DNA of 64,000 nt from contig CANBWP010000013.1 in assembly GCA_947373185.1 (NCBI GenBank), forward strand, positions 6,797 to 70,796, written 5' to 3'. Position 1 is the stretch's first letter. Every line of letters starts with the position of its first letter. The stretch comes from Comamonadaceae bacterium (GTDB taxonomy: Bacteria; Pseudomonadota; Gammaproteobacteria; Burkholderiales; Burkholderiaceae_C). The position numbers and the translations under genes are program-made. The notes beneath the pieces are model-generated. The model searched no databases. It saw only the letters and a list, made by a program, of their open reading frames with translations, and was not told the origin of the DNA. Of this stretch, positions 1,506-43,080 are shown one piece after another.

Positions 1506-2447
1506 TCAAGATGGGGTCGAGGGAGCCCAGCCCATGGCCAAGGCCAACTGATCAATGGACTCTTCTGTGTCTTGGCCTTCTTTGAGCAACCATTCGCAAA
1601 AGCCCTCAATGACGGGACTTTCTTGCGAACTCATTGGTGCGTTGGCGTAGTAACGACGCTGGCGCGCAGCCAGCAAACCAAATGGCGCGCACATCCGACC
1701 CGCAATGATGTCATCGGCCACCAAGAACAAGGGCACCAAGACAACGCCCAAGCCTTCGGCGGCGGCTTGCAATGCAAAATACATTTGCTCAAATTGCAAG
1801 GTGTGAGAAACCCGCATATCAGCCTGACCTGCCATGGGCAGCCACTCCGACCAAGCCATGGGCTCGGTGTCGTAGCTGATCAAGGTGTGGTCGGTCAAGA
1901 ATTTGGGCTCGCTCAATTTGCCGTTTTCGAGCAAGTCGGGGTGACACACAGGCACGATGGTTTCAGTCATGAACGGGACAGACACCATGCCGGGAATCGG
2001 TTGGTGTGCGCCGCGAATGGCCACGTCGTACTGCCGATCTTCGAAATTCACGGGTGCTGTTGAAGTGGTCAACTTCACCTCAACACCACCACGACGTCGT
2101 TGAAAGGCAGAGATGCGAGGAATCAGCCAACGCATGGTGAAAGTTGGAGGCGCACTGATGCGAAGTGCCGTAGGTTCCGTTTGCTCAAGCAACTGCATCG
2201 AAGTGACAGCGATGCGGTCCAGGGCAGGCGTGACCGCTGCCAAAAAGGTGCGTCCAGCATCTGTCAGGCTCAATTGCGATTGCGCACGGTTGAACAAGGT
2301 GGTACCCAACCAAGTTTCGAGGGTGGCCACTTGCTTGCTGACGGCACCGTGTGTGACGAAAAGTTCTTTGGCGGCCTTGGTGAAGCTGACATGGCGGGCA
2401 GCAGCTTCAAAAGCGCGTACGGCATTCAAAGGTGGAAGTTTTCTCAT
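1506..2447 (-). CDS. LysR-family transcriptional regulator (GcvA-like)
   Basis: 313 aa. N-terminal wHTH reads LPPLNAVRAFEAAARHVSFTKAAKELFVTHGAVSKQV. Divergent from the operon starting at 2615. Confidence 0.9.
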   Translation of the reverse strand: MRKLPPLNAVRAFEAAARHVSFTKAAKELFVTHGAVSKQVATLETWLGTTLFNRAQSQLSLTDAGRTFLAAVTPALDRIAVTSMQLLEQTEPTALRISAPPTFTMRWLIPRISAFQRRRGGVEVKLTTSTAPVNFEDRQYDVAIRGAHQPIPGMVSVPFMTETIVPVCHPDLLENGKLSEPKFLTDHTLISYDTEPMAWSEWLPMAGQADMRVSHTLQFEQMYFALQAAAEGLGVVLVPLFLVADDIIAGRMCAPFGLLAARQRRYYANAPMSSQESPVIEGFCEWLLKEGQDTEESIDQLALAMGWAPSTPS

Positions 2448-2529
2448 ACCCCTATCTTACATAAGCTTTAGATTTCTTGCTTAGATGTGAGTTTTCCTCG
2501 AACTTGGTGAAATAAACTGCTTTGCATGG

Positions 2530-2542
2530 CCCATTGAATGGG
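2530..2542. promoter_or_regulatory. Perfect 13-bp palindrome CCCATTGAATGGG in the LysR/operon divergent region; candidate operator
   Basis: Read directly from the sequence. It lies roughly midway in the 167-bp gap between the LysR start (2447) and the operon start (2615). It is flanked by TTGCA (2522..2526) and TGCAA (2550..2554). Confidence 0.35.
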
Positions 2543-2614
2543 TAGAAACTGCAAGCACACCCCTGTGGTGACTTGCGTGAGAAAAAGCACTTAATTGATT
2601 AGGAATGCCATCGC

Positions 2615-3502
2615 ATGAAAGCAGCTCCCTTTGATTACATCAAAGCCGACAGCCTCACCCACGCCCTTGAAACGCTGGGTGAGTACGGCGGCGATGCCAA
2701 ATTGATTGCTGGCGGCCAGAGTTTGGTCCCCATGATGGCCATGCGGCTGGCACGCCCAACTTGGCTGGTCGACATCAACCGCTTGGACAGCCTGAAAAAC
2801 ATTCAGGTGGGCACGGACCACGTGCATTTGGGTGCCGGGGTTCGCCAGCGTGACCTGGAGTTTCACCCCCAACTGGCGTCTCACCTGCCTTTGGTGGGCC
2901 AAGGCTTGAAATGGGTGGGGCATGAACAAACCCGCAACCGCGGCACCGTCGGCGGCAGTTTGGTCCACGCAGATCCCTCGGCCGAGTTGGCACTTTCAGC
3001 CATGGTCTTGGATGTGACGCTGACCTTGCAGTCCAAAGCAGAAGGGGCTCGCACCCTTCAAGCCGCCGATTTCTTTTTAGGCCCGATGTTCACCGCAGTC
3101 GGCGATACCGAAGTGCTGACCGACATGTCTTGGCCCATATGGCAAGGCGAGCACATTGGCAGCGCCTTTGAAGAAACCGCTATTCGCAAAGGCGACTTTG
3201 CCATGGCCTCTGCAGCCTGCCAGATTCAAACAAACGCAGATGGCGTGATTTCACGCTTGAGTTTTGGCATGGGCGGTGTCGATGGCACGCCCCTAGCCTT
3301 TCCCCAATTGGCAAACACCTTGGTCGGCCAGAAACTGACGGCCGAGTTGGCACAAGCCACCGCACATCAAGCCGCACAAACAAGCCAACCGGGCAGCGAC
3401 ATGCACGCGACGGCCGCCTATCGAAAACACTTGGCAGAAATTCTCTTAAGCCGCGCACTCTTGAGTGCTTATGCGCAAGCGGTAGGTGCGTCTCGCGCCT
3501 AA
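2615..3502 (+). CDS. FAD-binding medium subunit of a xanthine-dehydrogenase-family molybdenum hydroxylase (CoxM-like)
   Basis: 295 aa with FDYIKADSLTHALETL...LIAGGQSLVPMMAMRLARP. The Fe-S subunit follows 12 nt downstream. Confidence 0.9.
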   Translation: MKAAPFDYIKADSLTHALETLGEYGGDAKLIAGGQSLVPMMAMRLARPTWLVDINRLDSLKNIQVGTDHVHLGAGVRQRDLEFHPQLASHLPLVGQGLKWVGHEQTRNRGTVGGSLVHADPSAELALSAMVLDVTLTLQSKAEGARTLQAADFFLGPMFTAVGDTEVLTDMSWPIWQGEHIGSAFEETAIRKGDFAMASAACQIQTNADGVISRLSFGMGGVDGTPLAFPQLANTLVGQKLTAELAQATAHQAAQTSQPGSDMHATAAYRKHLAEILLSRALLSAYAQAVGASRA

Positions 3503-3514
3503 GGAAAAAGCAAC

Positions 3515-4009
3515 ATGACCTCAACTCTTCACATTCCCAAAAAGTCAATTCAGATTCACGTCAATGGTGTTGCCCAGCAACGCTTGGTTGAACCGCGCTT
3601 GAGCTTGGTTGACTTTCTGCGCGACGAACTGGGCCTGACGGGCACCCATGTAGGCTGCGAACACGGCGTCTGTGGCGCCTGCACTGTCATGCTCAACGAT
3701 GAGCCTGTTCGTTCTTGCTGCATGTTTGCGGTTCAAGCCGACGACATGAACGTGACCACCGTAGAAGGTTTAGCGCCTGAGCGAGGTGTGATGACCAAAA
3801 TTCAAGATGCTTTTTGCGAAAAGCATGCTTTGCAATGCGGCTACTGCACACCCGGCATGCTGATGGCCTGCCACGCCTTGGTGGCAGAAAATCCGCACCC
3901 TAGCGAAGCGCAGGTGCGCGAAGCCATCAGCAGCAACATCTGCCGTTGCACAGGCTACCAACAGATTGTGGATGCCGTGATGTACGCCACTCAACCTGAG
4001 AGCAAATGA
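3515..4009 (+). CDS. [2Fe-2S]-binding small subunit of the molybdenum hydroxylase (CoxS-like)
   Basis: 164 aa. Both cluster motifs are present: CEHGVCGACTV and CGYCTPGM...CRCTGY. Confidence 0.93.
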   Translation: MTSTLHIPKKSIQIHVNGVAQQRLVEPRLSLVDFLRDELGLTGTHVGCEHGVCGACTVMLNDEPVRSCCMFAVQADDMNVTTVEGLAPERGVMTKIQDAFCEKHALQCGYCTPGMLMACHALVAENPHPSEAQVREAISSNICRCTGYQQIVDAVMYATQPESK

Positions 4010-6438
4010 CCATGAGCAAGACGCCTTTTCGTTTCATAGGCAAACATCGCCGCGCTGTTGAGCACAAACGATTTGTGATTGGCAAAGGCCGCTATGCCGC
4101 TGACATTCAACTGCCCGGCATGCTTCACATTGCCTTGGTCGCCTCACCTTATGCCAGCGCCAAAATCAAAGGCATTGATGCCAGTCAAGCGCTTGCAATG
4201 CCCGGTGTCCATTTGGTTCTGACCGGCGAAGAGCTGCGTCAACACCTTGACGCCATGTTGCCAGGGGTCGATGCCCCGCAAGTCACCCGTTTCCCCTTGG
4301 CCTTTGATGTCACGCGATATGCGGGCGAATGGGTCGCGGCCGTGGTGGCTGACACGCGCGCGTTGGCAGAAGACGCGGCTGAATTGGTGACCGTGGACTA
4401 CGAGCCATTGCCTTCAGTGGTCGACCCCGAAGAAGCCATCCAGCCCCACGCCACCTTGGTTCATCCAGCGCATGGCACCAATGTGATTTTTCACCGCAAG
4501 TTTGTCTGGGGCCCTGTCGAAGAAGACTTTTCGAAATGCGATCACCAATTGAGCTATCGCGTCAGCTGGGCTCGCAATGCCACCGTCCCCATTGAAACCT
4601 TTGCCGTTGCTGCGCAATGGAACGATGCCACGGGCATTTTGGATGTGTGGGCTTCCATTCAAATGCCCAAGTTTCCGGACCAAATGGCCAAAGCATTGCG
4701 CTTGTCTGGCAACGCCGTGCGTGTGCACTTTGATGTGGACGTGGGTGGCAGTTATGGTGTCAAGCGTGGCTTGAAACACTCGGTGCTGGTGGGCTACATC
4801 GCCAGAAAATTGGGCCGCCCTGTGCGCTTCATTGAGGACCGCCTAGAAAACATGCGGGGGGGTGACATGCAGGGACCTGACCGGGTGTTTGATGTCACTT
4901 TGGGTTTTCAAAACAATGGTGAACTCAAATCGATGCGCATGCGCGCGGTGGATGACATTGGTGCCTATTCGGGCCGTTCACCTTTGCAACTGGGCAAACC
5001 TGTGGGCGCCATCGTAGGACCTTACCGCATCCAAAGCGTTGAATACGACGCCATGGCGGTCATGACCAACAAAACGCCTCAAGAAGCTGTCCGGGGATTT
5101 GGCCAGGCGCCTACCAACTACGCCATTGAAACAGGCATTGACAAAGTGGCCCGTTTTTTAAACATGGACCGCATTGCTTTACGCCGACTCAACATGATTG
5201 GCAAGGACGAGTTTCCCTACCTCATTCCCAGTGGCACCAGCTACGACTCGGGCGACTACGACACGGTCATGACCAAAGCCCTCAACGCAGCGGCCTACGA
5301 TGACCTGCTCAAAGAACGTGACCACTTGCGGGCCTCTGGCCAATTGGCAGGCATTGGCATTTCCACATGCTTAGAGCCATCCGGCGGTAACTCTTCCTTT
5401 GAGCCTTTGTTCAATCCGAAAAACGAAACCACCACTTGGATGGACTCGTGTTTGGTGCGTGTTGATTTATCGGGTGCTGTGACCGCACTCATGGGCACAT
5501 CAACGTCTGGTCAAGCGCACGAAACCATGGTGTCCACGGTGGTCGGTGAAGTGCTTCACCGCGAACCCGACAGCATCCGCGTTTTGCACGCCGACTCGCT
5601 CAATGCCCTCCCCTCCAACAGCCCTGTGGGCAGCCGAATGGCCATCATGTTGGGTGGCGCTGCAGCAGGCGCAGCCAAAAAGATTCGTCACAAACTGCTG
5701 CAGATTGCTGCGCACAATTTGGGCGTCGCCTTGGATCAACTGGAACAACTCGACTACGAAGGTGGTCATGTTCATGTCAAAAACAATCCCAGTCAAAAGC
5801 TTTCATGGGATGCCTTGGTCGAAATTGCACACCGCAAGTTTCACAAGCTGCCGCTAGGCATGGAGCCTGGCTTGCAAGAAAAATTCGTCTGGGAAGTGCC
5901 AACCGGTGGCATGCTGCCGACTGAAGATGGTCGCGTGCAAATGTACCCATGTCACTCCTTCGAGTCGCATGTGGTCTTGGCCAGCATCGATCCTGGTACG
6001 TGCAAAGTGACCATCCGCAAATATGTCTGCGGCCATGATTGTGGCGTCATGATCAGCCCGGATGTGGTGCATGGCATGACCTATGGTGGTATTGCGCATG
6101 GCTTGGGTGCGGCTCTCATGGAAAAATTTGCGTTCTCGCCTGAGGGGCAATTGCTCTCTGGCACCTTCATGGACTATTTGTTGCCGTCATCGGCTGAAGT
6201 ACCCGCCATCACCATCGTGGACCATTGCACACCATCCCCCCTCACGGAGTTTGGTCAAAAGGGTTCAGGCGAAGCCGGCTATTTGGGAAGTCCTGCCGCC
6301 ATTGCCAGTGCTGTCAACGATGCGCTCTCAACGCAAGGCGCAAAAATTGATCACTTGCCCATGACCCCTCAGGCCATTTGGGCCGTGTTGAACGACGCCA
6401 AACAAACACATTCACAGCCCCATACTGGAGTGCAATGA
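4006..6438 (+). CDS. Molybdopterin-binding large subunit of the molybdenum hydroxylase (CoxL/XdhB-like, not a CO dehydrogenase)
   Basis: 810 aa. ATGA stop/start overlap with the small subunit. Contains AVRGFGQAP and GQKGSGEAGYLGSPAA motifs. No CSFR or AYRGAGR string is present. Confidence 0.9.
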   Translation: MTMSKTPFRFIGKHRRAVEHKRFVIGKGRYAADIQLPGMLHIALVASPYASAKIKGIDASQALAMPGVHLVLTGEELRQHLDAMLPGVDAPQVTRFPLAFDVTRYAGEWVAAVVADTRALAEDAAELVTVDYEPLPSVVDPEEAIQPHATLVHPAHGTNVIFHRKFVWGPVEEDFSKCDHQLSYRVSWARNATVPIETFAVAAQWNDATGILDVWASIQMPKFPDQMAKALRLSGNAVRVHFDVDVGGSYGVKRGLKHSVLVGYIARKLGRPVRFIEDRLENMRGGDMQGPDRVFDVTLGFQNNGELKSMRMRAVDDIGAYSGRSPLQLGKPVGAIVGPYRIQSVEYDAMAVMTNKTPQEAVRGFGQAPTNYAIETGIDKVARFLNMDRIALRRLNMIGKDEFPYLIPSGTSYDSGDYDTVMTKALNAAAYDDLLKERDHLRASGQLAGIGISTCLEPSGGNSSFEPLFNPKNETTTWMDSCLVRVDLSGAVTALMGTSTSGQAHETMVSTVVGEVLHREPDSIRVLHADSLNALPSNSPVGSRMAIMLGGAAAGAAKKIRHKLLQIAAHNLGVALDQLEQLDYEGGHVHVKNNPSQKLSWDALVEIAHRKFHKLPLGMEPGLQEKFVWEVPTGGMLPTEDGRVQMYPCHSFESHVVLASIDPGTCKVTIRKYVCGHDCGVMISPDVVHGMTYGGIAHGLGAALMEKFAFSPEGQLLSGTFMDYLLPSSAEVPAITIVDHCTPSPLTEFGQKGSGEAGYLGSPAAIASAVNDALSTQGAKIDHLPMTPQAIWAVLNDAKQTHSQPHTGVQ

Positions 6439-6439
6439 C

Positions 6440-7261
6440 ATGAGCCAACAAACTCAGATGATTCAAGGTCCCGCAGGCAAGATAGCGGTTCACATCGAAG
6501 GGCCAGAGAATGGACCAGCCATTTTGTTGGCACACTCCATTTTGTCTTCCAGCATGATGTGGCGCGAGCAATCCAAGATGCTGGCCGCATGCGGTTGGCG
6601 TGTGGTCAGTGCCGACACGCGCGGTCATGGCCAGTCTGAGTGCCGCACACAAACAGCCACCATGGACGATTTGGTCGCTGACAGCATTGCGGTGCTTGAT
6701 GGCTTGAACATTGCTAAAGCCCACTACATGGGTTTGTCTTTGGGTGGCATGAGTGGCGCTGGCTTGGGCATTCACCACAGCGACCGTTTGCTCAGCATGG
6801 TGCTGTGCGATTGCCGTGCCGACATGCCCACCGCCATGGGCGATGTGTGGAATGAGCGCATGGCCAGTGCTGAAAAAGAAGGATGCCAATCTTTGGCCGT
6901 GGCCACGACGGAACGTTGGTTTGGCTTGCCTTTCATAGATGCCAATCCAGAAACGGGCAAGGCATTTCGAGACACCATTGCCAGCACACAAGTCGCTGGT
7001 TTCGTCAGTTGCGCGCGCGCCATTCAAAGTCTGAACTATCTAGACCAAGTGCACCACATTCAAGTGCCAACAAGCTTGATCGTCGGCGCCAATGATGGCC
7101 CCTTGCCTGCCGCCATGCGAGACATGCAAGAAAAAATCAAGGGTGCGCGTTTGGAAGTGATTCCCAATGCGGGCCACTTGCCCAACATCGACCAATCGAT
7201 TTCATTCAACGCTGCTTTGATGCGGCACTTTTTTCAAAACCCCACATGGAGCCAAGCATGA
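6440..7261 (+). CDS. Alpha/beta-fold hydrolase (3-oxoadipate enol-lactonase-like)
   Basis: 273 aa with ILLAHSILSS...DTRGHGQS and nucleophile elbow GLSLGG. Starts 1 nt after the large subunit stop. Confidence 0.85.
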   Translation: MSQQTQMIQGPAGKIAVHIEGPENGPAILLAHSILSSSMMWREQSKMLAACGWRVVSADTRGHGQSECRTQTATMDDLVADSIAVLDGLNIAKAHYMGLSLGGMSGAGLGIHHSDRLLSMVLCDCRADMPTAMGDVWNERMASAEKEGCQSLAVATTERWFGLPFIDANPETGKAFRDTIASTQVAGFVSCARAIQSLNYLDQVHHIQVPTSLIVGANDGPLPAAMRDMQEKIKGARLEVIPNAGHLPNIDQSISFNAALMRHFFQNPTWSQA

Positions 7262-7989
7262 GCGATCAAATTCAAATTCAACAAGACGGCCGCATTCTGC
7301 GCATCAAGTTCAACCGCGCCGAAGGCAATGGTGTTTCTGACAGCATGGCCGCTGCTTTGTCTGAAGCCGTCATGCAGGCCCACGAGACCTCTGACTGTGT
7401 GGTTTTGAGCAGTGTCGGCCCCGACTTTTGCACAGGCCGTGTGCGCGATGCAGATTTCCCACCGTCGCCTGAAGCCTATTCACGCCGTTCAGAATACGAC
7501 TCTATTTTCAACAGCTACAAAGCACTGCGCAGCTGCTTGGTGCCTGTGATTGGCGTGATTGAAGGCAAGTGCATGGGATTTGGTACGGCCATTGCATCTT
7601 TGTGCGATGTGTCTTTTGCCAGCGACACCGCCACGTTCAACATTCCTGAAATTGCGCACAACGTGATGCCCACCATGGTGATGTCTGCCATCTACGACCG
7701 CATGAACCGCAACGCCATTTTGTACATGGCTTACTCGGCCGACTTCATCAGCGCCGCACAAGCCCAGTCCTACGGCATCGTGAGCAACGTGGTGCCACAA
7801 GCCCAACTCGAAGCTGAAGTTAAACGCTTTTGCGACACACTGCTGAGCCGCCCTCGCCCTGCCATTTTGGGCCTGAAAGAATACTTGCGCGTGGCGCCTC
7901 GCATGGACGAGCAAGGTGCCATTGACTATGCCCGCAGCTTGCACTCGATGGTGAACACCTCTGCCGCCATGAAGAAAAAAGCGCATTGA
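7258..7989 (+). CDS. Enoyl-CoA hydratase/isomerase (crotonase) family protein
   Basis: Crotonase-like pattern ILRIKFNRAEGNGVS...FCTGRV...VIGVIEGKCMGFGTAIA. The ATG at 7258 forms an ATGA overlap with the hydrolase stop. An alternative ATG lies at 7246. Confidence 0.85.
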   Translation: MSDQIQIQQDGRILRIKFNRAEGNGVSDSMAAALSEAVMQAHETSDCVVLSSVGPDFCTGRVRDADFPPSPEAYSRRSEYDSIFNSYKALRSCLVPVIGVIEGKCMGFGTAIASLCDVSFASDTATFNIPEIAHNVMPTMVMSAIYDRMNRNAILYMAYSADFISAAQAQSYGIVSNVVPQAQLEAEVKRFCDTLLSRPRPAILGLKEYLRVAPRMDEQGAIDYARSLHSMVNTSAAMKKKAH

Positions 7990-8043
7990 TTGAACGCGCG
8001 AATTTGATCGACATCCGACAGCCCCACAGAAAGTAGCAAGATC

Positions 8044-8706
8044 ATGGAAATATTAGGTCAACAATTGATTTCGGCCCCACGCCAGAGAGTTTGGGATGCA
8101 TTGAACGATCCCGCCGTGTTGAAAGAATGCTTACCAGGCTGCGAATCTGTGGAGCGCGTCACCCCTGATGAATTTCGGGTGATCATCAAAACGGCCATTG
8201 GACCTTTGAAGGCACGTTTCCAGGGCTCTCTCAAAATCACTGAAGCCAAAGAACCCGAATCTTGCGTGATGCAATTTGAAGGTCAAGGCGGCGCCGTGGG
8301 TTTTGGCAAAGGAACCTCGACTGTCACATTGAAGGAAACGGCTGAAGGCACTGAGCTGAGCTACGAGGCCAAAGCACAAATTGGCGGCAAACTGGCCCAA
8401 GTCGGTTCACGCCTGATTGACAGTGTGGCCAAGAAAATGGCGGACGATTTTTTCAAGGCCTTTCAAAATGCCTTGTCGCCCAAAGCCGAATCGGCTGCGG
8501 CTGCGGCTGCGGCTGCGGCTGCGCCGGTTGCCCAGGCAATGGCGAGCTCCCAAGAGGCCAGCGCCACGCCATCCCGTCAAGCTGATGTTGCAGCCCACGC
8601 GCACACAACGCCCTCAGACGCGCACATGGTGCCGGCCTGGTGGCTTTTCCCTGCGGCTCTGTTGGGCGCCGCCATCATGTTGGCCGGCAATTGCTGGATG
8701 CACTGA
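8044..8706 (+). CDS. CoxG-like SRPBCC protein with poly-Ala linker and C-terminal transmembrane helix
   Basis: N-terminus MEILGQQLISAPRQRVWDALNDPAVLKECLPGCESVE is CoxG-like. C-terminus carries A10 and then VPAWWLFPAALLGAAIMLAGNCWMH. Confidence 0.85.
   Translation: MEILGQQLISAPRQRVWDALNDPAVLKECLPGCESVERVTPDEFRVIIKTAIGPLKARFQGSLKITEAKEPESCVMQFEGQGGAVGFGKGTSTVTLKETAEGTELSYEAKAQIGGKLAQVGSRLIDSVAKKMADDFFKAFQNALSPKAESAAAAAAAAAAPVAQAMASSQEASATPSRQADVAAHAHTTPSDAHMVPAWWLFPAALLGAAIMLAGNCWMH
8494..8523 (+). repeat. Perfect hexanucleotide repeat (GCTGCG)x5 encoding Ala10 inside the CoxG-like gene
   Basis: Counted directly in the sequence (8494..8523). Confidence 0.95.
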
Positions 8707-8736
8707 TCGAATGTGTTTGAACAAAGGAGTCCGGCC

Positions 8737-9867
8737 ATGAAAACATGTTTCTCTCGCAACGGATTTCAAGGGGCTCAGTATGCAGCCCTTCGAAATGGCG
8801 CTCTGTGTTTCTTCAACGGCTTGGCCTTGTGTGGTGCCGTGATGGCTCAAACCATTTCAAGTCAAGCCCCTCTCAGCGGAACTGTCGCAGGCAGCCCGAA
8901 TTTGTTGCAATATGACAAATCGGATCGCACTGAAAAGTTATTGGAAGCCGCCACCAAAGATGGCACGCTCACCCTTTACACCGCCTTCAGGCCCCAAGAT
9001 TTGCCCCTCATCATTGCGCCCTTTGAAGCCAAATACGGCATCAAGGTCAAGGCCTGGCGCTCTGGCAGCAACAACGTGACCCAGCGTGTGGTTCGCGAAG
9101 CGGCCGGCAAACGTCCAGAAGTGGACGTCATCATGATGCCGGCCAGCGAAATGGAAGCGCTGTACCGTGAGAAGTTGCTACAAGCCGTGAGCTCGCCTGC
9201 TACCAAAGACTTGATTGCCAATACGGTGCCCGCACACAAGCAATGGGCCACCGTGTTCATGAATGTCACGGTTCATTCGTACAACACGCAATTGATCAAG
9301 AAAGAAGACCTGCCTAAAACCTACAACGATCTGTTGGATCCGAAGTGGAAGGGTAAATTGGGGGTGGAGTCCAAAGCCGAAGAGTGGTACAGCAAGGTCG
9401 TCACCGTCATGGGCGAAGAAAAAGGCACCAAGTTTTTCCGCGAGTTGGTCACTAAAAATGGCATGTCTGCCAGGTTGGGCGCCTCCCTTTTGCACAATCT
9501 GGTCATTGCGGGTGAAGTGCCCTTGGCCATGACGGTCTACATTGACTTGCCCGAGAAAGACAAACGCGCTGGCAAACCTGTGGACTGGTTTGCCCTTGAC
9601 CCCGTGGTCGCGCAAGGTTTCAACATGTCGATCGCCCAAAAATCGCAACATCCCAACGCTGCGCTTTTGTTTTACGACTACATGCTCTCACCGGAGACCC
9701 AAAAACTTCTCACCACTTTGCACTACTACCCAGCCAATGCCAAAGTACCCAATCCTTATCCCAACATGAAAATTGAAGTGATTGACCCCGTCATCACGAT
9801 GGACACCTTCAGCAAATGGACCAAATCCTTTGACGATGTGGTCATCAAAAATTCAAGCACCAAATAA
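8737..9867 (+). CDS. Periplasmic ABC-type solute-binding protein (family 1, Fe3+/AfuA-like fold); orphan copy 1
   Basis: AAGGAG lies 7 nt upstream of the ATG at 8737. Signal-like N-terminus ...LALCGAVMAQT. Shares LTLYTA...KYGIKVKAWRSGS...DLPKTYNDLLDPKWKGKLG with the ORF at 13803. Confidence 0.8.
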   Translation: MKTCFSRNGFQGAQYAALRNGALCFFNGLALCGAVMAQTISSQAPLSGTVAGSPNLLQYDKSDRTEKLLEAATKDGTLTLYTAFRPQDLPLIIAPFEAKYGIKVKAWRSGSNNVTQRVVREAAGKRPEVDVIMMPASEMEALYREKLLQAVSSPATKDLIANTVPAHKQWATVFMNVTVHSYNTQLIKKEDLPKTYNDLLDPKWKGKLGVESKAEEWYSKVVTVMGEEKGTKFFRELVTKNGMSARLGASLLHNLVIAGEVPLAMTVYIDLPEKDKRAGKPVDWFALDPVVAQGFNMSIAQKSQHPNAALLFYDYMLSPETQKLLTTLHYYPANAKVPNPYPNMKIEVIDPVITMDTFSKWTKSFDDVVIKNSSTK

Positions 9868-9884
9868 CGACTCTCACGATTGAC

Positions 9885-11747
9885 ATGAAAAAAACAACGA
9901 CCACCAAATCCGCTGCCGCTAAAAAATCAAGCGTGGCAACAAAGACCGTTCAAAAAACTGCGGCCCCTCAACGTGGCTACCGCGATTTGCACGAGCACTT
10001 GGCCGAACTCGACAAACAAGGCCTCTTGATCACGGTTGACCGGCCGATCAACAAAGACACCGAACTTCACCCCTTGGTGCGTTGGCAATTCAGGGGCGGT
10101 ATTGCCGAACCCGATCGCAAAGCATTTCTGTTCACCAATGTGGTGAATGGCAAAGGCAAAAAATATGACATCCCCGTGGTGGTGGGTGCTTTGGCGGCCA
10201 CACGCAAAATTTACAGCGTGGGCATGGGCTGTGAGATTGCAGACATTGGCAAAACATGGAGCCATGCGATTGCCAACCCCATCAAACCCAATGTCCTGAA
10301 AGACGCACCCTGCCAAGAAATCGTGATCCAAGGCAAAGACCTGTTGAAGCCTGGCAATGGCGTGGACAGTTTGCCCATTCCCATCTCGACACCTGGTTGG
10401 GACAATGCGCCCTACACCACCTTGTCTCAGTACATCTCCAAAGATCCTGACACGGGCATTCAAAACATGGGCATCTACCGAGGTCAAGTGAAGTCCCCGA
10501 CACGTCTGGGCATGAACCCTTCATTGGAAAATCAACCTGGCATCTATACCCACTGGGAAAAAGCCAAAGCACGCGGTGAACGTTTACCCGCCGCTGTCAT
10601 TCTGGGTTGCCCCCCCTGCGTGGCGTTCACATCGGCGCAGAAGTTGTCTGAAGACACAGACGAATTGCATGTGGCTGGTGGCTTGGCCGGCGCCCCAATC
10701 AATGTCGTGAAATGCAAAACCGTTGACTTGATGGTTCCAGCAGAAGCAGAGATCGTGATCGAAGGCTACATCAACACCGAATGGTTGGAGCCAGAGGCAC
10801 CCTTTGGCGAATCACATGGCCATGTCAACTTGCAAGAGTTCAACGCCTACATGGAAGTGACGGCCATCACACGCCGCAAGGACGCCATTCTCACGTCCAT
10901 CATTTCACAAGTCACCCCTTCTGAGTCGAGCTTGATCAAACGCGTGGCGCTTGAGCCTGTGTTCTTGAATCACCTGAGCAAAGCCATGGGCATCAAGGGT
11001 GTGAAGAAAGTGGTCATGCACGAGCCACTGACCAACCTGCGCAAAGTGATTTCCATTGTGGTGGACCGAAAGATGCCGCAAACTGAAGTTTGGCGTGCGC
11101 TGTATGGTGCAGCCTCTTTGCTGCGGTCGGGCGGCAAACTGGTGATTGCCGTGAACGAGGACATCGATCCGGACAATGCCGACGCGCTGCTTTGGGCCAT
11201 GAGTTACCGCGCCAACTTTGCGCTTGACTTGCAAGTCTTGCAAAACCGCGACCCCGGTCATGGACCGCGCAGCCCACGCAACAATGGCATGGACTCTTCC
11301 TTGCTAATTGACGCCACCCTGAAAGACGACTTCCCACCCATTGCGTTGCCCAAAAAAGAGTTCATGGAAAACGCCAAAGCCATTTGGGAAGAGTTGGGTC
11401 TGCCCAAACTCAAACCTGAAGCACCTTGGTTTGGTTACTCGCTGGGTGACTGGAGCGAACGCAATGAGCAAATGGCTCAGCGCGCCGTCAAGGGTGACTA
11501 CTTTGTCACAGGCGAAGAGATTGCAAAGATGCGCCGCAAAGACGTGCCCATGAACACGGAAATCAAACACGTCATGGAAAACGAAGGTCGCAAAGCTTTG
11601 CCCGAGAAAAAAATCAGCGCTAAAACCAGCGCAAAGAAGGCAGTCAAAGCAGTGGCAAAGTTGCCCGCAACAACCAAGGCCAAAGCCAAAGTTCAAGTGA
11701 CAACAAAGCCAAAGGCTTCTGCCAAAAAATCAGCAGCGAAGAAGTAA
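9885..11747 (+). CDS. UbiD-family decarboxylase with Lys/Ala-rich N- and C-terminal extensions
   Basis: 620 aa. Core has YRDLHEHLAELDKQGLL...PFGESHGH...VIAVNEDIDPDNADALLWAM. The final 46 residues contain 16 Lys, 12 Ala and no acidic residue. Confidence 0.9.
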   Translation: MKKTTTTKSAAAKKSSVATKTVQKTAAPQRGYRDLHEHLAELDKQGLLITVDRPINKDTELHPLVRWQFRGGIAEPDRKAFLFTNVVNGKGKKYDIPVVVGALAATRKIYSVGMGCEIADIGKTWSHAIANPIKPNVLKDAPCQEIVIQGKDLLKPGNGVDSLPIPISTPGWDNAPYTTLSQYISKDPDTGIQNMGIYRGQVKSPTRLGMNPSLENQPGIYTHWEKAKARGERLPAAVILGCPPCVAFTSAQKLSEDTDELHVAGGLAGAPINVVKCKTVDLMVPAEAEIVIEGYINTEWLEPEAPFGESHGHVNLQEFNAYMEVTAITRRKDAILTSIISQVTPSESSLIKRVALEPVFLNHLSKAMGIKGVKKVVMHEPLTNLRKVISIVVDRKMPQTEVWRALYGAASLLRSGGKLVIAVNEDIDPDNADALLWAMSYRANFALDLQVLQNRDPGHGPRSPRNNGMDSSLLIDATLKDDFPPIALPKKEFMENAKAIWEELGLPKLKPEAPWFGYSLGDWSERNEQMAQRAVKGDYFVTGEEIAKMRRKDVPMNTEIKHVMENEGRKALPEKKISAKTSAKKAVKAVAKLPATTKAKAKVQVTTKPKASAKKSAAKK

Positions 11748-11776
11748 CGACCCGACACGAAGAGGTGAGGTGACAC

Positions 11777-13036
11777 ATGGAAAGCGTCAAGCAAAATAAA
11801 TTACTGACCGAAGTGGGCAAAGGCACGCCCATGGGCAATTTGATGCGCCGTTACTGGCAACCCATTGGCGCCGCCGTGGAGCTAGAGAAGAAATGGACCA
11901 AGCGCATTCGCCTGTTGGGAGAAGACTTGGTCTTGTTCAAAGACCGCCAAGGCAGGTTGGGTTTGATCGCGGAACAGTGCCCGCATCGCAGAGCGTCCTT
12001 TGCCCATGGCATTCCCACTGAGAATGGCATTCGTTGCCCATACCACGGCTGGGAATACAACGCGCAGGGCAAATGCATCAACCAACCCAACGAGCAAGAC
12101 AAATGCGCATTCCGGGACAAAGTCAGCACGGACGCGTACCCTGTAGAAGAATTGGGCGGCATGTTGTTTGCCTACATGGGGCCAATGCCTGCGCCCTTGC
12201 TGCCTCGCTGGGATGGCTTTGTGGCCGAAGGCACCATTCGAATGATGGGACGCACCATCTTGCCCATCAATTGGCTGCAAATCATGGAAAACTCACTGGA
12301 TCCCATTCACACAGAATGGCTCCACGGTCATCACTATGAATTTTTGAAGGAACAAGAAGGCATCAAGGTTGCCATCAGTACGCACCACCTGAAAATTGAC
12401 TTCAAAGAATTCGAATACGGCATGACCAAGCACCGTTTGCTCGAAGGCCACTCTGAAGACGGAGACGATTGGAAAATCGGACACCCTATCGTGTTCCCGA
12501 ACATGTTGGCGGTTGGCAATGGCGACGAAAAATCGCGCTACTACTCCTTCCAAATGCGCGTGCCTGTCGATGACACGCACACCATGCACCTTTGGTTCAA
12601 TGCCTATGTGCCACCTCAAGGCGTCGCGGTGCCTGCGCATTTGTTGGACCGCGTTCACACTTATGAAGTCCCCTACCTTGATGAATCAGGCGAGTTCATT
12701 GTTGACAACGTCGACGGCCAAGACATGATGGCCTGGATTTCGCAAGGCGCCATTGCGGATCGCTCGCTGGAGAACTTAGGCGCGACAGACAAGGGGGTTG
12801 TCATGTATCGCCGCATCTTGAAACGTGAAATGCAAAAAGTCGAGGCTGGCATTGACCCCATGGGTTTGGTCCGCGACAGCGCCCGCAACCAACGCATCGA
12901 CTTGCCCAACGAGAAGAAGAAGCATCACAACAGCGATGGTTTTACCAGCTTCATGATGCGAACCCACGCCAAGTATTCCCCCATTGCCAACGACTTGTCC
13001 AAGTTGTTTGAACCTCATCTGCACACCGCCAAGTGA
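11777..13036 (+). CDS. Rieske [2Fe-2S] non-haem-iron oxygenase, alpha subunit (phthalate-family/LigXa-KshA-like)
   Basis: 419 aa. Rieske motif CPHRRASFAHG...CPYHGW. Iron site NSLDPIHTEWLH. N-terminal LTEVGKGTPMGNLMRRYWQPI. Confidence 0.88.
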   Translation: MESVKQNKLLTEVGKGTPMGNLMRRYWQPIGAAVELEKKWTKRIRLLGEDLVLFKDRQGRLGLIAEQCPHRRASFAHGIPTENGIRCPYHGWEYNAQGKCINQPNEQDKCAFRDKVSTDAYPVEELGGMLFAYMGPMPAPLLPRWDGFVAEGTIRMMGRTILPINWLQIMENSLDPIHTEWLHGHHYEFLKEQEGIKVAISTHHLKIDFKEFEYGMTKHRLLEGHSEDGDDWKIGHPIVFPNMLAVGNGDEKSRYYSFQMRVPVDDTHTMHLWFNAYVPPQGVAVPAHLLDRVHTYEVPYLDESGEFIVDNVDGQDMMAWISQGAIADRSLENLGATDKGVVMYRRILKREMQKVEAGIDPMGLVRDSARNQRIDLPNEKKKHHNSDGFTSFMMRTHAKYSPIANDLSKLFEPHLHTAK

Positions 13037-13746
13037 TTCACATGCAAATCAACGAATTGAAACAACGCCTGATCGATGCCGGTCACATCTTGGAAAATGC
13101 GGGCCAGGGCGACCTGACCCGCGGCCATGTGTCCATTCGCTTGCCTGACGACCCTGCCCACTTCATCATGAAGCCGCACAGCTATGGTTTTGATGAAATC
13201 ACCCTTGAAAACATTGTCTTGTGCAACCTTGACGGTGAAAAAGTGGGCGGTGGAGGCCGCAAACACAGTGAGGTCTACATTCACTCTGAAATTTTCAAAG
13301 CGCGCCCCGATGTCAACAGCGTGATTCACACGCACCCCACTTATGCCGTGGCGCTTTCTGCCACCGGCCAAAAATTAGAGCCCATCAGCCAACCTGCCGT
13401 GGCCTTTGCCGATGGCCTGCCCTATTTCAACGATGCCATTGACCTCATTCGCACCCATGAGCTTGGCATCGGTGTGGCCAACGCGCTTGGCAGCTGCAAA
13501 GCCGTTCTGATGCGCAACCATGGCGCAGCCATTGTGGGTGGCAATGTGGAAGAAGCCACCATCTTGGCCATCATGCTGGACAATGCCTGCCAGATTCAGT
13601 TGGCCACCATGGCGGCCGGTGGCATTGGCGAGAAGTTCACGGCAGAACAGGTGAGCAAGTTGCACCACGACATCACACGACCCGAGCAGTACGTGATCAA
13701 TTTTGAATATCTGCGACGCCGCGCGCTCCGACAATTGGCAGCTTGA
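13033..13746 (+). CDS. Class II aldolase/adducin-family protein
   Basis: 237 aa. Metal-binding His pattern SEVYIHSEIF...VIHTHP...MRNHGA. GTGA overlap with the Rieske stop. An alternative ATG lies at 13042. Confidence 0.85.
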   Translation: MIHMQINELKQRLIDAGHILENAGQGDLTRGHVSIRLPDDPAHFIMKPHSYGFDEITLENIVLCNLDGEKVGGGGRKHSEVYIHSEIFKARPDVNSVIHTHPTYAVALSATGQKLEPISQPAVAFADGLPYFNDAIDLIRTHELGIGVANALGSCKAVLMRNHGAAIVGGNVEEATILAIMLDNACQIQLATMAAGGIGEKFTAEQVSKLHHDITRPEQYVINFEYLRRRALRQLAA

Positions 13747-13802
13747 CGCGCCGTTTCAAATCGCTACGCTGACAGCACCCGCCAACACTTTGGAACCATC
13801 CG

Positions 13803-14852
13803 ATGCGCCCTTTGACACTCTTTGTGACCGCCGCTTGTTTCTTCATGGCAGGCGCACAGGCTCAAACCCCCGAACCTGCCAAACCCCTGTCGATTCAGGA
13901 GCTGGCCACCTACCAAGGTGCTGACCGTACCGCCCGCCTGATCGAGGGTGCGAAAAAGGAAGGCACTTTGTCGGTGTATCACGTCTATCCGGCCCTGAGC
14001 AACGTGATGAATGAGTTCAGTAAAAAGTACGGCATCAAAATCAAAGCTTGGCGCGCTGGTTCAGAAGCGGTCTTGCAACGCGTGACCAGCGAAAGCCGTG
14101 GCAACAAGTTTGACGTCGACATCGTGCAAAACAATGCCCCCGAAAACGAAGCGGCGTTCCGCGAAAAATTGTTGCAAGAGGTGAAGTCGCCTTTCCATGC
14201 CGATTTGTTGCCGCAAGCCGTCCCGGCCCACAAACAATGGGTCGGCATCACCGTTGACATCTGGACGGCAGCCTACAACACCGAGAAAATCAAAAAGGAA
14301 GACTTGCCCAAGACCTACAAAGATTTGCTCGACCCCAAATGGAAAGGTCAATTGGGCATTGAAGGCAACAACCACGCATGGTTTGGCGCCTTGATGAACA
14401 AGATGGGCGAAGAAGAAGGTCAAAAGCTTTTTGCCAACATTGCAAGCACCAACGGCATCTCCAATCGCAAGGGCCACTCGCTGCTGACCATGATGGTGTC
14501 TTCAGGTGAAGTCCCTCTGGCCCTGACGGTGTACAGCTGGAACCCTGAGCAATTGAAAATCAAAGGCGCACCCGTTGAAGGTCTGGCTTTACAGCCACTC
14601 ATGGCGCAACCGAGCACCATTGCGATGCTGAAAAAATCGCCCAACCCCCATGCGGCCCTGCTGTTTTATGACTACATGTTGAGTGAAGGCCAAAAGCAAC
14701 TGTATGACTTGAAATTTGTGCCCACCAGCAAGAAGTACGAACTGCCCTTCCCCAAGGTGCCGCTGAACTTCATTGACCCCGGTATGGCGCTGGACCAGCA
14801 AGCCAAATGGTTCAAGATGTTTGAAGACACCGTGGTCAAGCGGGCCAAGTAA
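13803..14852 (+). CDS. Periplasmic ABC-type solute-binding protein; orphan copy 2, paralog of 8737..9867
   Basis: 349 aa. Signal peptide MRPLTLFVTAACFFMAGAQA. Contains KYGIKIKAWRAGS...DLPKTYKDLLDPKWKGQLG. Confidence 0.85.
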   Translation: MRPLTLFVTAACFFMAGAQAQTPEPAKPLSIQELATYQGADRTARLIEGAKKEGTLSVYHVYPALSNVMNEFSKKYGIKIKAWRAGSEAVLQRVTSESRGNKFDVDIVQNNAPENEAAFREKLLQEVKSPFHADLLPQAVPAHKQWVGITVDIWTAAYNTEKIKKEDLPKTYKDLLDPKWKGQLGIEGNNHAWFGALMNKMGEEEGQKLFANIASTNGISNRKGHSLLTMMVSSGEVPLALTVYSWNPEQLKIKGAPVEGLALQPLMAQPSTIAMLKKSPNPHAALLFYDYMLSEGQKQLYDLKFVPTSKKYELPFPKVPLNFIDPGMALDQQAKWFKMFEDTVVKRAK

Positions 14853-16028
14853 TTGACAGGTCAGATCGCAAGCACCCACGCCACGCCGCTGCGCATTGCC
14901 GTGGTGGGCTTTGGTGCGGCGGCGCAAGCTTTTGTGCCGGCCATTTTGGGCAATCCCGAATTTGAATTGGCGGCCATTGTTGAGCCTCATGAGGATGTGC
15001 AACCCCAAGCACGCCGCTTGGGCGTTCCGGTCTTTTCACACCTAGATCAACTGCGTCAGCTGTCCCGTTTAGATGGGGTGTATTTGGCCACACCGACACC
15101 ACTGCATGCAGCACAAAGTGTGGCCTGCTTAGAGGCAGGCTGGCATGTCTTGGTCGAAAAACCCATGGCCTGCAATGCGGCACAAGCGCTGCGCATGGTG
15201 GACACGGCCAAACGTTGCAACAAGCACCTGACGGTGGGGCACTCACACAGTTTTGACGCCCCGATTCAAGCCATGCGTCAGATCATTCAAAGGGGCGAAC
15301 TGGGCAAGGTTCACATGGTGAACACCTGGTGCTTCACCGATTGGGTCTATCGCCCTCGGCGCGCAGAAGAGTTGGACAGCGACTTCGGGGGGGGCGCCAC
15401 CTTTCGACAAGGGGCCCATCAGATCGACATCTTGCGCGCACTGTGCGGCGCCAAGGTCAAAACCGTCAAGGCCAAGGTATTCGATGTCGACCCTCAACGT
15501 TCAACCCATGGCGCGCACGCCATTTTCTTGGATTTTGACAACGGCGCTGCAGCGACCGCCATCTACAACGGCTATGGCGGCATGTCCAGCATGGACTTGA
15601 CCCAGAACATTTCAGAATGGGGGTTTGACCAGCCTCCCCATCTCAGAACTTGGTACACCCGCCCAGACAAAGCACACAGTCCCGAGCAAGAGCTCAAGGC
15701 CAAACAACAGCGGGCTCAATCGGCCATTCCAGCCACGTCGCCCCATCAGCCACATTTTGGGTTGACGGTGGTCAGTGGTGCTTTGGGCGATGTGCGTCAA
15801 ACCCCAGATGGCTTGCAAATTTCTGGCCCCAATGGCCAGACAGACATTCAACTCAGCCTTCAGGCCAGTCCCAGGGATTTGGTGCTGGCCGAGCTGGCGC
15901 ACACATGGCGTGGTACAGCCCAGCCTTGGCACGATGGCATGTGGGGGTATGAAAATTTAAGGGTGTGTGAAGCTGCCATTGCGTCTGCGGCCACTGGACG
16001 CGAAGTGCTTCTGGACGACCCTTGCTAG
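14853..16028 (+). CDS. Gfo/Idh/MocA-family NAD(P)-dependent oxidoreductase
   Basis: 391 aa. Rossmann start LRIAVVGFGAAAQ and EKPMA motif. TTG start abuts the preceding stop, so the start is uncertain. Confidence 0.8.
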   Translation: MTGQIASTHATPLRIAVVGFGAAAQAFVPAILGNPEFELAAIVEPHEDVQPQARRLGVPVFSHLDQLRQLSRLDGVYLATPTPLHAAQSVACLEAGWHVLVEKPMACNAAQALRMVDTAKRCNKHLTVGHSHSFDAPIQAMRQIIQRGELGKVHMVNTWCFTDWVYRPRRAEELDSDFGGGATFRQGAHQIDILRALCGAKVKTVKAKVFDVDPQRSTHGAHAIFLDFDNGAAATAIYNGYGGMSSMDLTQNISEWGFDQPPHLRTWYTRPDKAHSPEQELKAKQQRAQSAIPATSPHQPHFGLTVVSGALGDVRQTPDGLQISGPNGQTDIQLSLQASPRDLVLAELAHTWRGTAQPWHDGMWGYENLRVCEAAIASAATGREVLLDDPC

Positions 16029-20489: not shown

Positions 20490-21167
20490 TCAGTTGCCCA
20501 ATTTGGCTTTGAAGTGATCCCAGCAGCGCTGGAACAACACGTCGCTCCACAACTTTTCGCGGCACATTTGAATTTCGTGCTCGCTGAAAATATAGGGTGA
20601 TCCCAATTGCATCGCCATGTACTGGCGGTGTGCGTTCTCTTCCATGTAGTTGGCCAGGACAAAGGCTTCCCGAATGTTTTGCCCCACCGTGACAGCGCCA
20701 TGGGCTTTCAACAAAGCGGCAGGACGATCGCCCAAAGTGGCGGCCAAGCGGTCTGCCATGTTTTTGTTGTTGATGGAGTTGGGTGAGTCAAGCAATGGCA
20801 CGGGGTAGACCAAAGAGCCCTGTCCATAAACTGGCAAATAATCTTTGCCCGCCATGGTGAGGTAGGTCGACCATTTGGGATGCGCATGCACCACCGCTTT
20901 CACGTCAGGACGGACTCTGTAAATACCGGCATGCAGGTGAAACTCAAGCGGTGGTTTGCCAGCCCCCTCAATGACTTGCCCTTCCATGTCAATGGTGCAA
21001 ATGTCATTGACGGTCAATTGGCTTCTTTGGCAAGCGCCAGTGTTGATCAACAGGGTGTTGTTGGGCAAGCGGATGCTGGCATGACCGTTGAAGTCAATGA
21101 TGTCTTGCGACTCCAACATGCGAATGCAGTCGACCAGTTGTTGTTTCAGTTCCAGTGTTTCAGACAT
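20490..21167 (-). CDS. Class II aldolase/adducin-family protein
   Basis: 225 aa. His pattern EFHLHAGIY...VVHAHP...LKAHGA. Lies immediately downstream of the PhtD-like gene. Confidence 0.85.
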   Translation of the reverse strand: MSETLELKQQLVDCIRMLESQDIIDFNGHASIRLPNNTLLINTGACQRSQLTVNDICTIDMEGQVIEGAGKPPLEFHLHAGIYRVRPDVKAVVHAHPKWSTYLTMAGKDYLPVYGQGSLVYPVPLLDSPNSINNKNMADRLAATLGDRPAALLKAHGAVTVGQNIREAFVLANYMEENAHRQYMAMQLGSPYIFSEHEIQMCREKLWSDVLFQRCWDHFKAKLGN

Positions 21168-43075: not shown

Positions 43076-43080
43076 GTTTC

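Follow-up and report, generated by a model that had tools for sequence, protein, structure and literature searches.

Divergent LysR-associated locus joining a molybdenum hydroxylase, UbiD-family decarboxylases, and a phthalate-type gene set in a Comamonadaceae bacterium

What does a bacterium do with twelve closely spaced genes that encode a xanthine dehydrogenase-family molybdenum (Mo) hydroxylase, a UbiD-family decarboxylase, a Rieske oxygenase, a class-II-aldolase-fold protein, and two periplasmic binding proteins, and do these genes constitute a single pathway? The question is raised by a 64,000-nucleotide stretch of contig CANBWP010000013.1 (assembly GCA_947373185.1) from a Comamonadaceae bacterium (hereafter, the window, numbered from its first letter), in which an earlier reading of the letters alone (hereafter, the sequence-only reading) had taken these genes as one operon for an undescribed heteroaromatic (di)carboxylate pathway. 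We found that the twelve genes are one arm of a divergent locus, the other arm of which is lysR-ubiD2-ubiX-DUF4936-thiamine pyrophosphate (TPP) enzyme-cytochrome c, and that the operon is, judging from the phylogenetic spread of its parts, a mosaic of three modules rather than one co-evolving unit. The locus is best explained, with a probability slightly above one half (about 0.55), as a LysR-controlled peripheral pathway for the breakdown of acids that carry carboxyl groups on an aromatic or heteroaromatic ring, which would comprise uptake, decarboxylation, hydroxylation, and hydrolytic opening.

Layout and conservation of the divergent locus

Between positions 2615 and 16028, twelve plus-strand open reading frames (ORFs) are tightly packed with gaps of -4 to 56 nt (Table 1); stop and start codons overlap at ATGA 4006-4009, ATGA 7258-7261, and GTGA 13033-13036, and a TAA abuts a TTG at 14852/14853. 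Terminator-like sites occurred at chance level (30 found vs 23.9 +/- 5.7 expected), and the terminator scan placed none of them in the plus-strand intergenic gaps. On the evidence of these overlapping or abutting junctions and of terminator-like sites without excess, the twelve genes are a genuine operon. The coupled same-strand run described in the sequence-only reading thus stands, with Pfam families now assigned to all of its members, except that the last two genes follow each other in the order SBP2 then Gfo, not the reverse. In the public annotation, Gfo begins at GTG 14901; the upstream TTG 14853 is plausible, because a start at 14901 would remove the first Rossmann strand. For the first solute-binding protein (SBP1), the start is most likely ATG 8737, preceded by an AAGGAG ribosome-binding site, and not GTG 8713.

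The lysR gene, divergent from the operon, is the first of a minus-strand unit. The next gene, ubiD2, had escaped the ORF list because it runs off the window start. In a public contig that spans the locus beyond the window edge (L087; L-numbers denote fetched loci), the order after lysR is UbiD2 (543 aa), UbiX (199 aa), DUF4936, a 666-aa TPP enzyme, and cytochrome c. Neighboring genes of this arm are 14-93 nt apart. UbiX, scoring 271.6 bits against an NCBIfam cut-off of 188, lies about 260 nt past the window edge, directly after UbiD2 on the same contig, so that its reported absence holds inside the window but not for the locus. A 217-aa ORF at 786-1439 on the plus strand was rejected as a gene, since it has no Pfam match and is the antisense frame of UbiD2, which also explains its matches to every UbiD locus on the opposite strand.

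When 12 orthologous intergenic regions were aligned, conserved elements became apparent between lysR and the FAD-subunit gene (Table 1). With a divergent LysR-type transcriptional regulator gene and a conserved dyad in the shared region, the locus has the predicted make-up of a LysR-type divergent operon. LysR orthologs (54-94% identity) adjoin relatives of the cluster. A promoter scan, itself at chance level, gave no sigma-70 consensus site in this control region, and a riboswitch in the leader (e.g., a molybdenum cofactor riboswitch) was rejected, as the intergenic region has no Rfam match even at E<=1. Gene-content negatives for the window refer to public gene calls covering about 15-36 kb and to scanned ORFs of >=150 aa in 36-64 kb (hereafter, the window scans); no DNA-binding protein other than LysR was found in them, in agreement with the view that it is the only transcription factor.

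Table 1 Positions of the genes and control elements of the locus in the window
Feature	Position	Strand	Basis
UbiD2, second UbiD-family decarboxylase dependent on prenylated flavin mononucleotide (prFMN)	1..1412	-	Window translation: 470/543 codons, C-terminus beyond edge
LysR-type regulator, GcvA subfamily	1506..2447	-	Pfam HTH_1, LysR_substrate; NCBIfam PRK11139 304.5 bits vs cut-off 288
Divergent control region lysR/FAD, 167 nt	2448..2614	.	Alignment of 12 orthologous intergenic regions
Dyad TAAGC-N12-GCTTA	2462-2483	.	Conserved in 12 orthologous regions
Motif TGTGAGTTTTCCTC	2486-2499	.	TGTGAG..CTC core kept also in the more distant L020 and L035
Block TGAAATAAACTG	2508-2519	.	Alignment of 12 orthologous intergenic regions
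Short stem GCCC-loop-GGGT	2529-2543	.	Pairing kept, loop sequence varies among orthologs
FAD-binding medium subunit, xanthine dehydrogenase-family Mo hydroxylase	2615..3502	+	Pfam FAD_binding_5, CO_deh_flav_C; below NCBIfam cut-offs
Small subunit, two [2Fe-2S] clusters	3515..4009	+	Pfam Fer2, Fer2_2
Molybdopterin-binding large subunit, 808-810 aa	4006..6438	+	Pfam Ald_Xan_dh_C, MoCoBD_1, MoCoBD_2
Alpha/beta-fold serine hydrolase, PcaD-like	6440..7261	+	Pfam Abhydrolase_1
Crotonase-fold protein, 243 aa	7258..7989	+	Pfam ECH_1
CoxG-like SRPBCC protein	8044..8706	+	Pfam COXG, 130 bits
SBP1, periplasmic ATP-binding cassette (ABC)-type solute-binding protein, signal peptide	8737..9867	+	Pfam SBP_bac_8/1/6/11
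UbiD1, UbiD-family (prFMN) decarboxylase, 620 aa	9885..11747	+	Pfam UbiD_N, UbiD, UbiD_C
Rieske non-haem-iron oxygenase, alpha subunit only, phthalate/LigXa family	11777..13036	+	Pfam Rieske, LigXa_C
Class-II-aldolase-fold protein	13033..13746	+	Pfam Aldolase_II
SBP2, SBP1 paralog (~46% identity), signal peptide	13803..14852	+	Pfam SBP_bac_6/1/11
Gfo/Idh/MocA dehydrogenase	14853/14901..16028	+	Pfam GFO_IDH_MocA

To follow the gene order in other genomes, one genome per species was scanned with UbiD1, and all window proteins were compared by tblastn with the 86 loci fetched at that stage. The full twelve-gene order, together with the upstream lysR/UbiD2, is kept in seven loci and, as far as the contig ends, in two more; the isolate Limnohabitans sp. 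15K (L020) keeps it with one additional TctC gene. The same order is thus found in at least 10 species-level Limnohabitans/Comamonadaceae genomes, which is far beyond chance, with per-gene identities among the conserved clusters ranging from about 66-70% (Gfo) to 95-96% (UbiD1 and crotonase). The assembly is therefore not fortuitous, although its parts do not travel together as one unit.

Module A (FAD-FeS-Mo-hydrolase-crotonase-CoxG) occurs together with SBP1-UbiD1, and without the last four genes, in seven other loci, including L095. A Burkholderia sp. PAMC 26561 plasmid carries it beside a lysR ortholog without any UbiD (identities of 80% for the Mo subunit, 73% for the crotonase, and 61% for the hydrolase), followed by XdhC and a NifS-like gene. 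Module B comprises SBP1-UbiD1 and the lysR-UbiD2-UbiX-TPP-cytochrome c arm. SBP1 and UbiD1 adjoin in dozens of loci, SBP1 being nearly always paired with UbiD1, and in L003 the two stand alone with an ABC permease and ATPase; in L095 and L097, UbiD2-UbiX-(TctC)-DUF4936 and module A are transcribed divergently. The TPP enzyme (76-80% identical) and the cytochrome c (64-70%) are encoded directly beside UbiD1 in five loci, and TPP relatives of about 30% identity adjoin UbiD in several alphaproteobacteria and on a Neorhizobium petrolearium plasmid. Such a combination of TPP enzyme and cytochrome c may point to an oxidative decarboxylation. TPP enzymes of about 600-666 aa, in many cases together with a small cytochrome c, are found repeatedly beside the UbiD clade in beta- and alphaproteobacteria, also at L087:13680-16044, L064:8178-9977, and L093:19340-21109. 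Module C (Rieske-aldolase fold-SBP2-Gfo) is confined to the Limnohabitans clade.

More distant versions vary further. In Herbaspirillum, Herminiimonas, Sterolibacterium, and Oxalobacteraceae, an Amidohydro_2 protein takes the place of the crotonase; Burkholderia sp. L27 has the order GntR, hydrolase, CoxG, FAD, FeS, Mo, crotonase, UbiD, UbiX, aldehyde dehydrogenase, XdhC; and Shinella lacus carries another distant version. A Mo hydroxylase and a UbiD, mostly with CoxG, UbiX, and/or the hydrolase and crotonase, recur in Burkholderia sp. L27, Shinella lacus, Pelagibacterium lacus, Neorhizobium petrolearium, and Oxalobacteraceae. The adjacency of modules A and B in many genera of two proteobacterial classes and in varied orders argues for their functional coupling. 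Moreover, the receptors encoded in the related loci are of TctC, ABC, or major facilitator superfamily types, which fits anionic carboxylate substrates.

Families of the encoded proteins

Families of the operon genes were assigned by Pfam, equivalog status by NCBIfam cut-offs, and solved relatives from the PDB. The first three genes encode the separate FAD, 2x[2Fe-2S], and Mo-pterin subunits of a three-subunit xanthine dehydrogenase-family enzyme, with full-length Pfam domains and, for the catalytic glutamate near the C-terminus, a GSGEAG motif in the large subunit. The large subunit contains AVRGFGQAP and neither CSFR nor AYRGAGR, and it scored 421 bits against TIGR02416 (cut-off 991) and 443 bits against NF040766 (cut-off 950), the models of the CO dehydrogenase (CODH). 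Judged by these motifs and scores, and in agreement with the sequence-only reading, the Mo enzyme is not a CODH. In the PDB, its large subunit matched CoxL and quinoline 2-oxidoreductase equally well (about 1e-111), with 4-hydroxybenzoyl-CoA reductase far lower. The top NCBIfam scores of the FAD and FeS subunits were those of archaeal glyceraldehyde dehydrogenase subunits, to the alpha subunit of which the large subunit scored 417 bits. Because the Mo enzyme scores equally against the archaeal glyceraldehyde dehydrogenase and heterocycle hydroxylases, the heteroaromatic nature of the substrate, as specified in the sequence-only reading, is only presumptive, whereas the broader class of carboxylated (hetero)aromatic acids is favored. 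CoxG adjoins the Mo genes in nearly every relative and is presumed to be a membrane tether or an accessory protein of the Mo enzyme.

The hydrolase scored 202.4 bits against TIGR02427 (pcaD; cut-off 255.85), resembles 3-oxoadipate enol-lactonase (PDB 2xua, E 2.1e-36), and carries GLSLGG and GH motifs. Its start/stop overlap with the crotonase gene is shared with L095 and L096, and from this junction the two genes are taken to be translationally coupled. The crotonase belongs to a narrow clade: among 5.8 billion proteins, 692 relatives were found at E<=1e-10, all of about 243 aa, the top 120 being >=75% identical. It keeps one of the two canonical catalytic glutamates (NIPEIAH). The top Foldseek matches of its AlphaFold2 model (predicted local distance difference test score, pLDDT, 80) were all generic acyl-CoA hydratases of about 22% identity, which is not decisive on coenzyme A (CoA) dependence. 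The hydrolase/crotonase step may have a free acid or a lactone as its substrate, or else a CoA ester supplied by an enzyme whose gene lies outside the locus. The only CoA-activating genes found near relatives are those in L061 and L097, namely a family III CoA-transferase gene between the Mo gene and the crotonase gene (L061:9529-10770) and an ADP-forming acyl-CoA synthetase gene beside the cluster, with a second crotonase gene and a TctC gene (L097:12592-14676).

UbiD1 and UbiD2 are 58% identical to each other. UbiD_N, UbiD, and UbiD_C domains in UbiD1 and a UbiX above its cut-off together constitute a UbiD/UbiX prFMN system, and both UbiDs are far from the ubiquinone-type equivalog NF008175 (148 and 122 bits for UbiD1 and UbiD2, respectively; cut-off 788). 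For both, the closest solved relative is the furandicarboxylate decarboxylase HmfF (UbiD1, PDB 6h6v, E 2.1e-39; UbiD2, PDB 6h6x, E 1.3e-39). The residue corresponding to the histidine (His296/297) that is reported to specify furan in HmfF is serine in UbiD2 (6h6x alignment) and in UbiD1 (pairwise alignment with UbiD2); Arg304 is replaced by Tyr in UbiD2 and by Leu in UbiD1, and Arg331 is kept. UbiD1 additionally has Lys/Ala/Thr-rich low-complexity tails at 9885-9968 (residues 1-28) and about 11607-11747 (about residues 575-620), which are absent in UbiD2 and vary in length among orthologs (548-627 aa). The best NCBIfam matches of the TPP enzyme were PRK08327 and then benzoylformate decarboxylase, both below cut-off.

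SBP1 showed distant similarity only, to ferric-ion binding proteins (E about 3e-14). An ABC transporter at 54730-59066 was considered as the partner of SBP1/SBP2 and rejected: it comes with a separate 476-aa binding protein, and the transporter encoded after UbiD1 in L095 is not its ortholog. The window also contains orphan TctC genes at 48193-49194, 50192-51280, and 53034-54044, and further ones lie at L090:1470-2435 and 4253-5293 (about window 31-34 kb); TctA/TctB membrane genes were not found in the window scans.

The Rieske protein matched phthalate dioxygenase (PDB 7fjl, E 1.6e-47), being close in the Rieske domain; its catalytic domain keeps the Fe-ligand motif, is otherwise diverged, and aligns to 7fjl over a short stretch. 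This alignment points to membership in the phthalate dioxygenase family, not to orthology. The Gfo protein aligned over residues 2-371 with PDB 7wzd, deposited as '4,5-dihydroxyphthalate dehydrogenase' (E 1.3e-67, 232 bits), and is assigned at family level to the phthalate cis-4,5-dihydrodiol dehydrogenases. The aldolase-fold protein scored 95.9 bits against NCBIfam PhtC (3,4-dihydroxyphthalate decarboxylase; cut-off 200), its PDB relatives include the decarboxylases NovR and Mlr6791, and it is probably a non-oxidative decarboxylase of a hydroxy-aromatic acid. At the level of family, the three proteins are together recognizable as the putative oxygenase, cis-dihydrodiol dehydrogenase, and decarboxylase of a phthalate-type set, to which SBP2 would belong as the binding protein; this accounts for genes that had been regarded as extra, and the module takes up one third of the locus. 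Another gene of the class-II-aldolase fold is found at 20490-21167 on the minus strand, beside a shikimate dehydrogenase gene, and shares about 30% identity with the copy in the operon.

The enzyme families are all known, and it is their combination that has no described counterpart in the literature searched: queries on Limnohabitans and UbiD, DUF4936, benzene tri-/tetracarboxylate degradation, and clusters of UbiD with Mo hydroxylase returned no account of such a gene set. Homologs of the Rieske protein and UbiD1 were, among the matches listed, near-identical Limnohabitans sequences, with no distant named relatives.

Proposed route and competing explanations

From the gene content, junctions, conservation, modular make-up, and family assignments, we infer a substrate class, a reaction order, and a link between the modules. 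The paralogous SBP1 and SBP2 would capture related anionic substrates, the membrane parts of their transporters being encoded elsewhere. UbiD1 and UbiD2, with prFMN from UbiX, would then strip ring carboxyls, and the TPP enzyme may join them. The Mo hydroxylase, aided by CoxG, would add a water-derived oxo or hydroxyl group; its product, of a lactone, lactam, or enol-ester type, would be opened or processed by the hydrolase-crotonase pair. Module C, an addition peculiar to the Limnohabitans clade, would turn a phthalate-like dicarboxylate into a dihydroxy-monocarboxylate, for which ring cleavage would be encoded elsewhere.

Several observations weigh against this catabolic route. None of the twelve operon proteins reached an NCBIfam equivalog cut-off, so that every activity is guessed from the protein family. 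As far as its subunit scores go, the Mo enzyme could oxidize aldehydes instead of hydroxylating rings, and the proteins closest to the crotonase in structure and in sequence are all acyl-CoA enzymes. As the sequence-only reading had remarked of the missing partners, no CoA ligase is encoded, nor was a CoA-transferase found, among the operon genes, in the window scans, or in most related loci; the window scans likewise yielded no ring-cleavage enzyme and no Rieske reductase or ferredoxin, a tblastn search of the window for a phthalate dioxygenase reductase (PDR)-type protein being empty as well. In favor of the route, a 320-aa PDR-type reductase (FAD_binding_6, NAD_binding_1, and C-terminal Fer2) is encoded 3.4 kb downstream of the cluster in Limnohabitans sp. 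15K (L020:19577-20539). ABC membrane components linked to SBP1/SBP2 were also not found in the window scans. Finally, the modules occur apart, module A on the PAMC 26561 plasmid and SBP1-UbiD1 in L003, and may therefore serve different substrates.

This last point leads to the alternative that deserves the most attention, although we consider it unlikely: a functional patchwork, in which three modules for unrelated substrates share a promoter in Limnohabitans and no single twelve-gene pathway exists. Module A without UbiD on the plasmid, SBP1-UbiD1 alone with its own permease and ATPase, and the restriction of module C, with its own binding protein, to one clade are what such a patchwork would produce; the recurrent adjacency of modules A and B across two proteobacterial classes in varied orders, and the presence of all twelve genes with overlapping junctions in at least 10 species, are not readily accommodated by it.

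A more far-reaching version of the catabolic route is put forward only tentatively, being more doubtful than the patchwork. It regards the locus as a carboxyl-stripping machine, in which two UbiDs with UbiX, a TPP enzyme coupled to cytochrome c, and an aldolase-fold decarboxylase would be joined to a non-CODH Mo hydroxylase and a CoA-independent hydrolase/crotonase, and which Limnohabitans would use to mineralize carboxyl-rich (hetero)aromatic dissolved organic matter. Candidate substrates would be benzene-, pyridine-, furan-, and pyrrole-polycarboxylates from the photo-oxidation of humic matter, black carbon, or melanin.

A little less probable again is a side-chain route without heteroaromatic ring hydroxylation, in which the TPP enzyme would convert an aryl-2-oxo acid (aryl-glyoxylate) to the aldehyde, the Mo enzyme would make the aryl carboxylate, and the UbiDs would decarboxylate it. 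The glyceraldehyde dehydrogenase-like scores of all three Mo subunits, benzoylformate decarboxylase as the second-best named match of the TPP enzyme, the co-localization of the TPP enzyme with UbiD across taxa, and the aldehyde dehydrogenase gene after UbiD-UbiX in Burkholderia sp. L27 all lend themselves to this interpretation. However, all these scores are far below the cut-offs, and the route leaves the hydrolase-crotonase pair without a function; no other partner is tied as closely to the Mo genes, and the pair is kept when UbiD and the TPP enzyme are absent.

The probability is low for a CoA route like that of the hmf cluster, acting on furoate, 2,5-furandicarboxylate (FDCA), or a thiophene or pyrrole analogue, in which UbiD would decarboxylate, a remote ligase would make the CoA ester, the Mo enzyme would hydroxylate, and the hydrolase and crotonase would open a lactone toward 2-oxoglutarate. 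It draws on HmfF as the closest solved relative of both UbiDs, on the joint presence of a Mo dehydrogenase, crotonase-type HmfE, UbiD, and UbiX in hmf, on the enol-lactonase-like hydrolase, on the acyl-CoA substrates of the crotonase relatives, and on the CoA-activating genes beside L061 and L097. However, HmfA has 1015 aa, compared with 810 aa for the large subunit here, and hmfD was present in all 99 surveyed genomes (PMC8091172), whereas no ligase is found here. Moreover, HmfF is a remote relative of the two UbiDs (E about 1e-39), both of which have serine in place of the histidine that is reported to make HmfF specific for furan (PMC7976604), and the second UbiD, the TPP enzyme, cytochrome c, and module C would be left unexplained. 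An aerobic CODH (cox) operon with accessory genes, which the presence of CoxG and CODH as the best NCBIfam and PDB name of the large subunit might bring to mind, can be dismissed in view of scores below half of the cut-offs, a loop without the cysteine-containing CSFR, and a catabolic gene context.

Limnohabitans is a dominant freshwater bacterioplankter, and the genes are very common in lake metagenomes, with more than 120 near-identical Rieske clusters listed and at least 8000 UbiD candidates. If the substrate is carboxyl-rich aromatic dissolved organic matter, the locus would offer a gene marker and a mechanism for the turnover of a poorly understood pool. In annotation, 'coxL-like' genes in genomes of the Limnohabitans type should not be read as a sign of CO oxidation. 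For enzymology, the points of interest are two new UbiD clades, the Mo hydroxylase, the link of a TPP enzyme to cytochrome c, and a tightly conserved crotonase for which no CoA-activating partner was found, and cultured carriers (Limnohabitans sp. 15K, Burkholderia sp. PAMC 26561 and L27, Neorhizobium petrolearium OS53, and Shinella lacus) make the question testable.

Elsewhere in the window, selD (selenophosphate synthetase-like, with AIRS domains) and selU (rhodanese plus AAA_SelU) are publicly annotated at 26630-28788 on the plus strand, and at 41453-45042 on the minus strand a glucose-methanol-choline (GMC) oxidoreductase gene adjoins an alkyl-sulfatase gene of the metallo-beta-lactamase fold, apparently unrelated to the operon.

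Comparison with known systems

The view that the locus maps onto no characterized route was strengthened by the comparison with hmf, pic, dip, and lum, which differ from it in gene families, and by the equivalog scores given above. The hmf system for furfural/HMF/furoate of Cupriavidus basilensis HMF14, named earlier as the nearest architecture, does resemble the locus at family level through its xanthine dehydrogenase-family Mo dehydrogenase, crotonase-fold HmfE, and UbiD with UbiX (HmfF/HmfG). Membership in hmf was rejected on the length of the large subunit (808-810 aa here; HmfA, the furoyl-CoA dehydrogenase large subunit, was compared by length only), the absent furoyl-CoA synthetase gene hmfD, and the lack of the furan histidine. 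In addition, the locus here has two UbiDs, a PcaD-like hydrolase, CoxG, a TPP enzyme with cytochrome c, ABC binding proteins, and a Rieske module.

Quinoline 2-oxidoreductase (Qor) and the picolinate dehydrogenase of the pic cluster in Alcaligenes faecalis JQ135 are, like the enzyme here, three-subunit FAD/FeS/Mo hydroxylases; in those pathways the hydroxylase attacks a (carboxylated) N-heterocycle in the first step and a decarboxylase comes next, although the similarity of the large subunit to QorL is no higher than that to CoxL. The pic cluster presumably relies on an amidohydrolase-fold decarboxylase and a 2,5-dihydroxypyridine dioxygenase, and we know of no Qor or pic cluster with UbiD/UbiX, a TPP enzyme, or a hydrolase-crotonase pair. 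The dipicolinate dip cluster was rejected as a match, being Mo-cofactor-independent and having a GntR regulator. The lum operon for lumichrome (riboflavin) catabolism of Nocardioides simplex combines TPP-dependent decarboxylation of a carboxylated N-heterocycle with xanthine oxidase-family hydroxylation and Rieske attack (PMC12746152). Its xanthine oxidase, however, is one chain of 140 kDa, its Rieske oxygenase is of the alpha/beta type with a ferredoxin and reductase of its own, its TPP enzyme is split into LumK/LumL, and it has no UbiD (PMC12746152); the architectures thus differ, and the resemblance is an analogy in logic rather than cluster homology.

PcaD of the beta-ketoadipate pathway is the closest characterized relative of the hydrolase, with the same Ser-His motifs, whereas the hydrolase here is below the equivalog cut-off and is coupled to a crotonase-fold protein; pcaB, pcaC, pcaG, pcaH, pcaI, pcaJ, and pcaF were not found nearby in the window scans. 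The phthalate 4,5-dioxygenase pathway of Comamonas and Burkholderia, finally, has in common with module C an alpha-only Rieske family, a Gfo-type cis-diol dehydrogenase, a decarboxylase that follows (a probable one here), and a dedicated periplasmic receptor. It differs in that the catalytic domain here is strongly diverged, the operon has no reductase, and the receptor is of the ABC type instead of TctC. The probable aldolase-fold decarboxylase here has what we take to be the class-II-aldolase fold of actinobacterial PhtC, not the proteobacterial type. This phthalate-type module is also fused here to a Mo-hydroxylase/UbiD operon.

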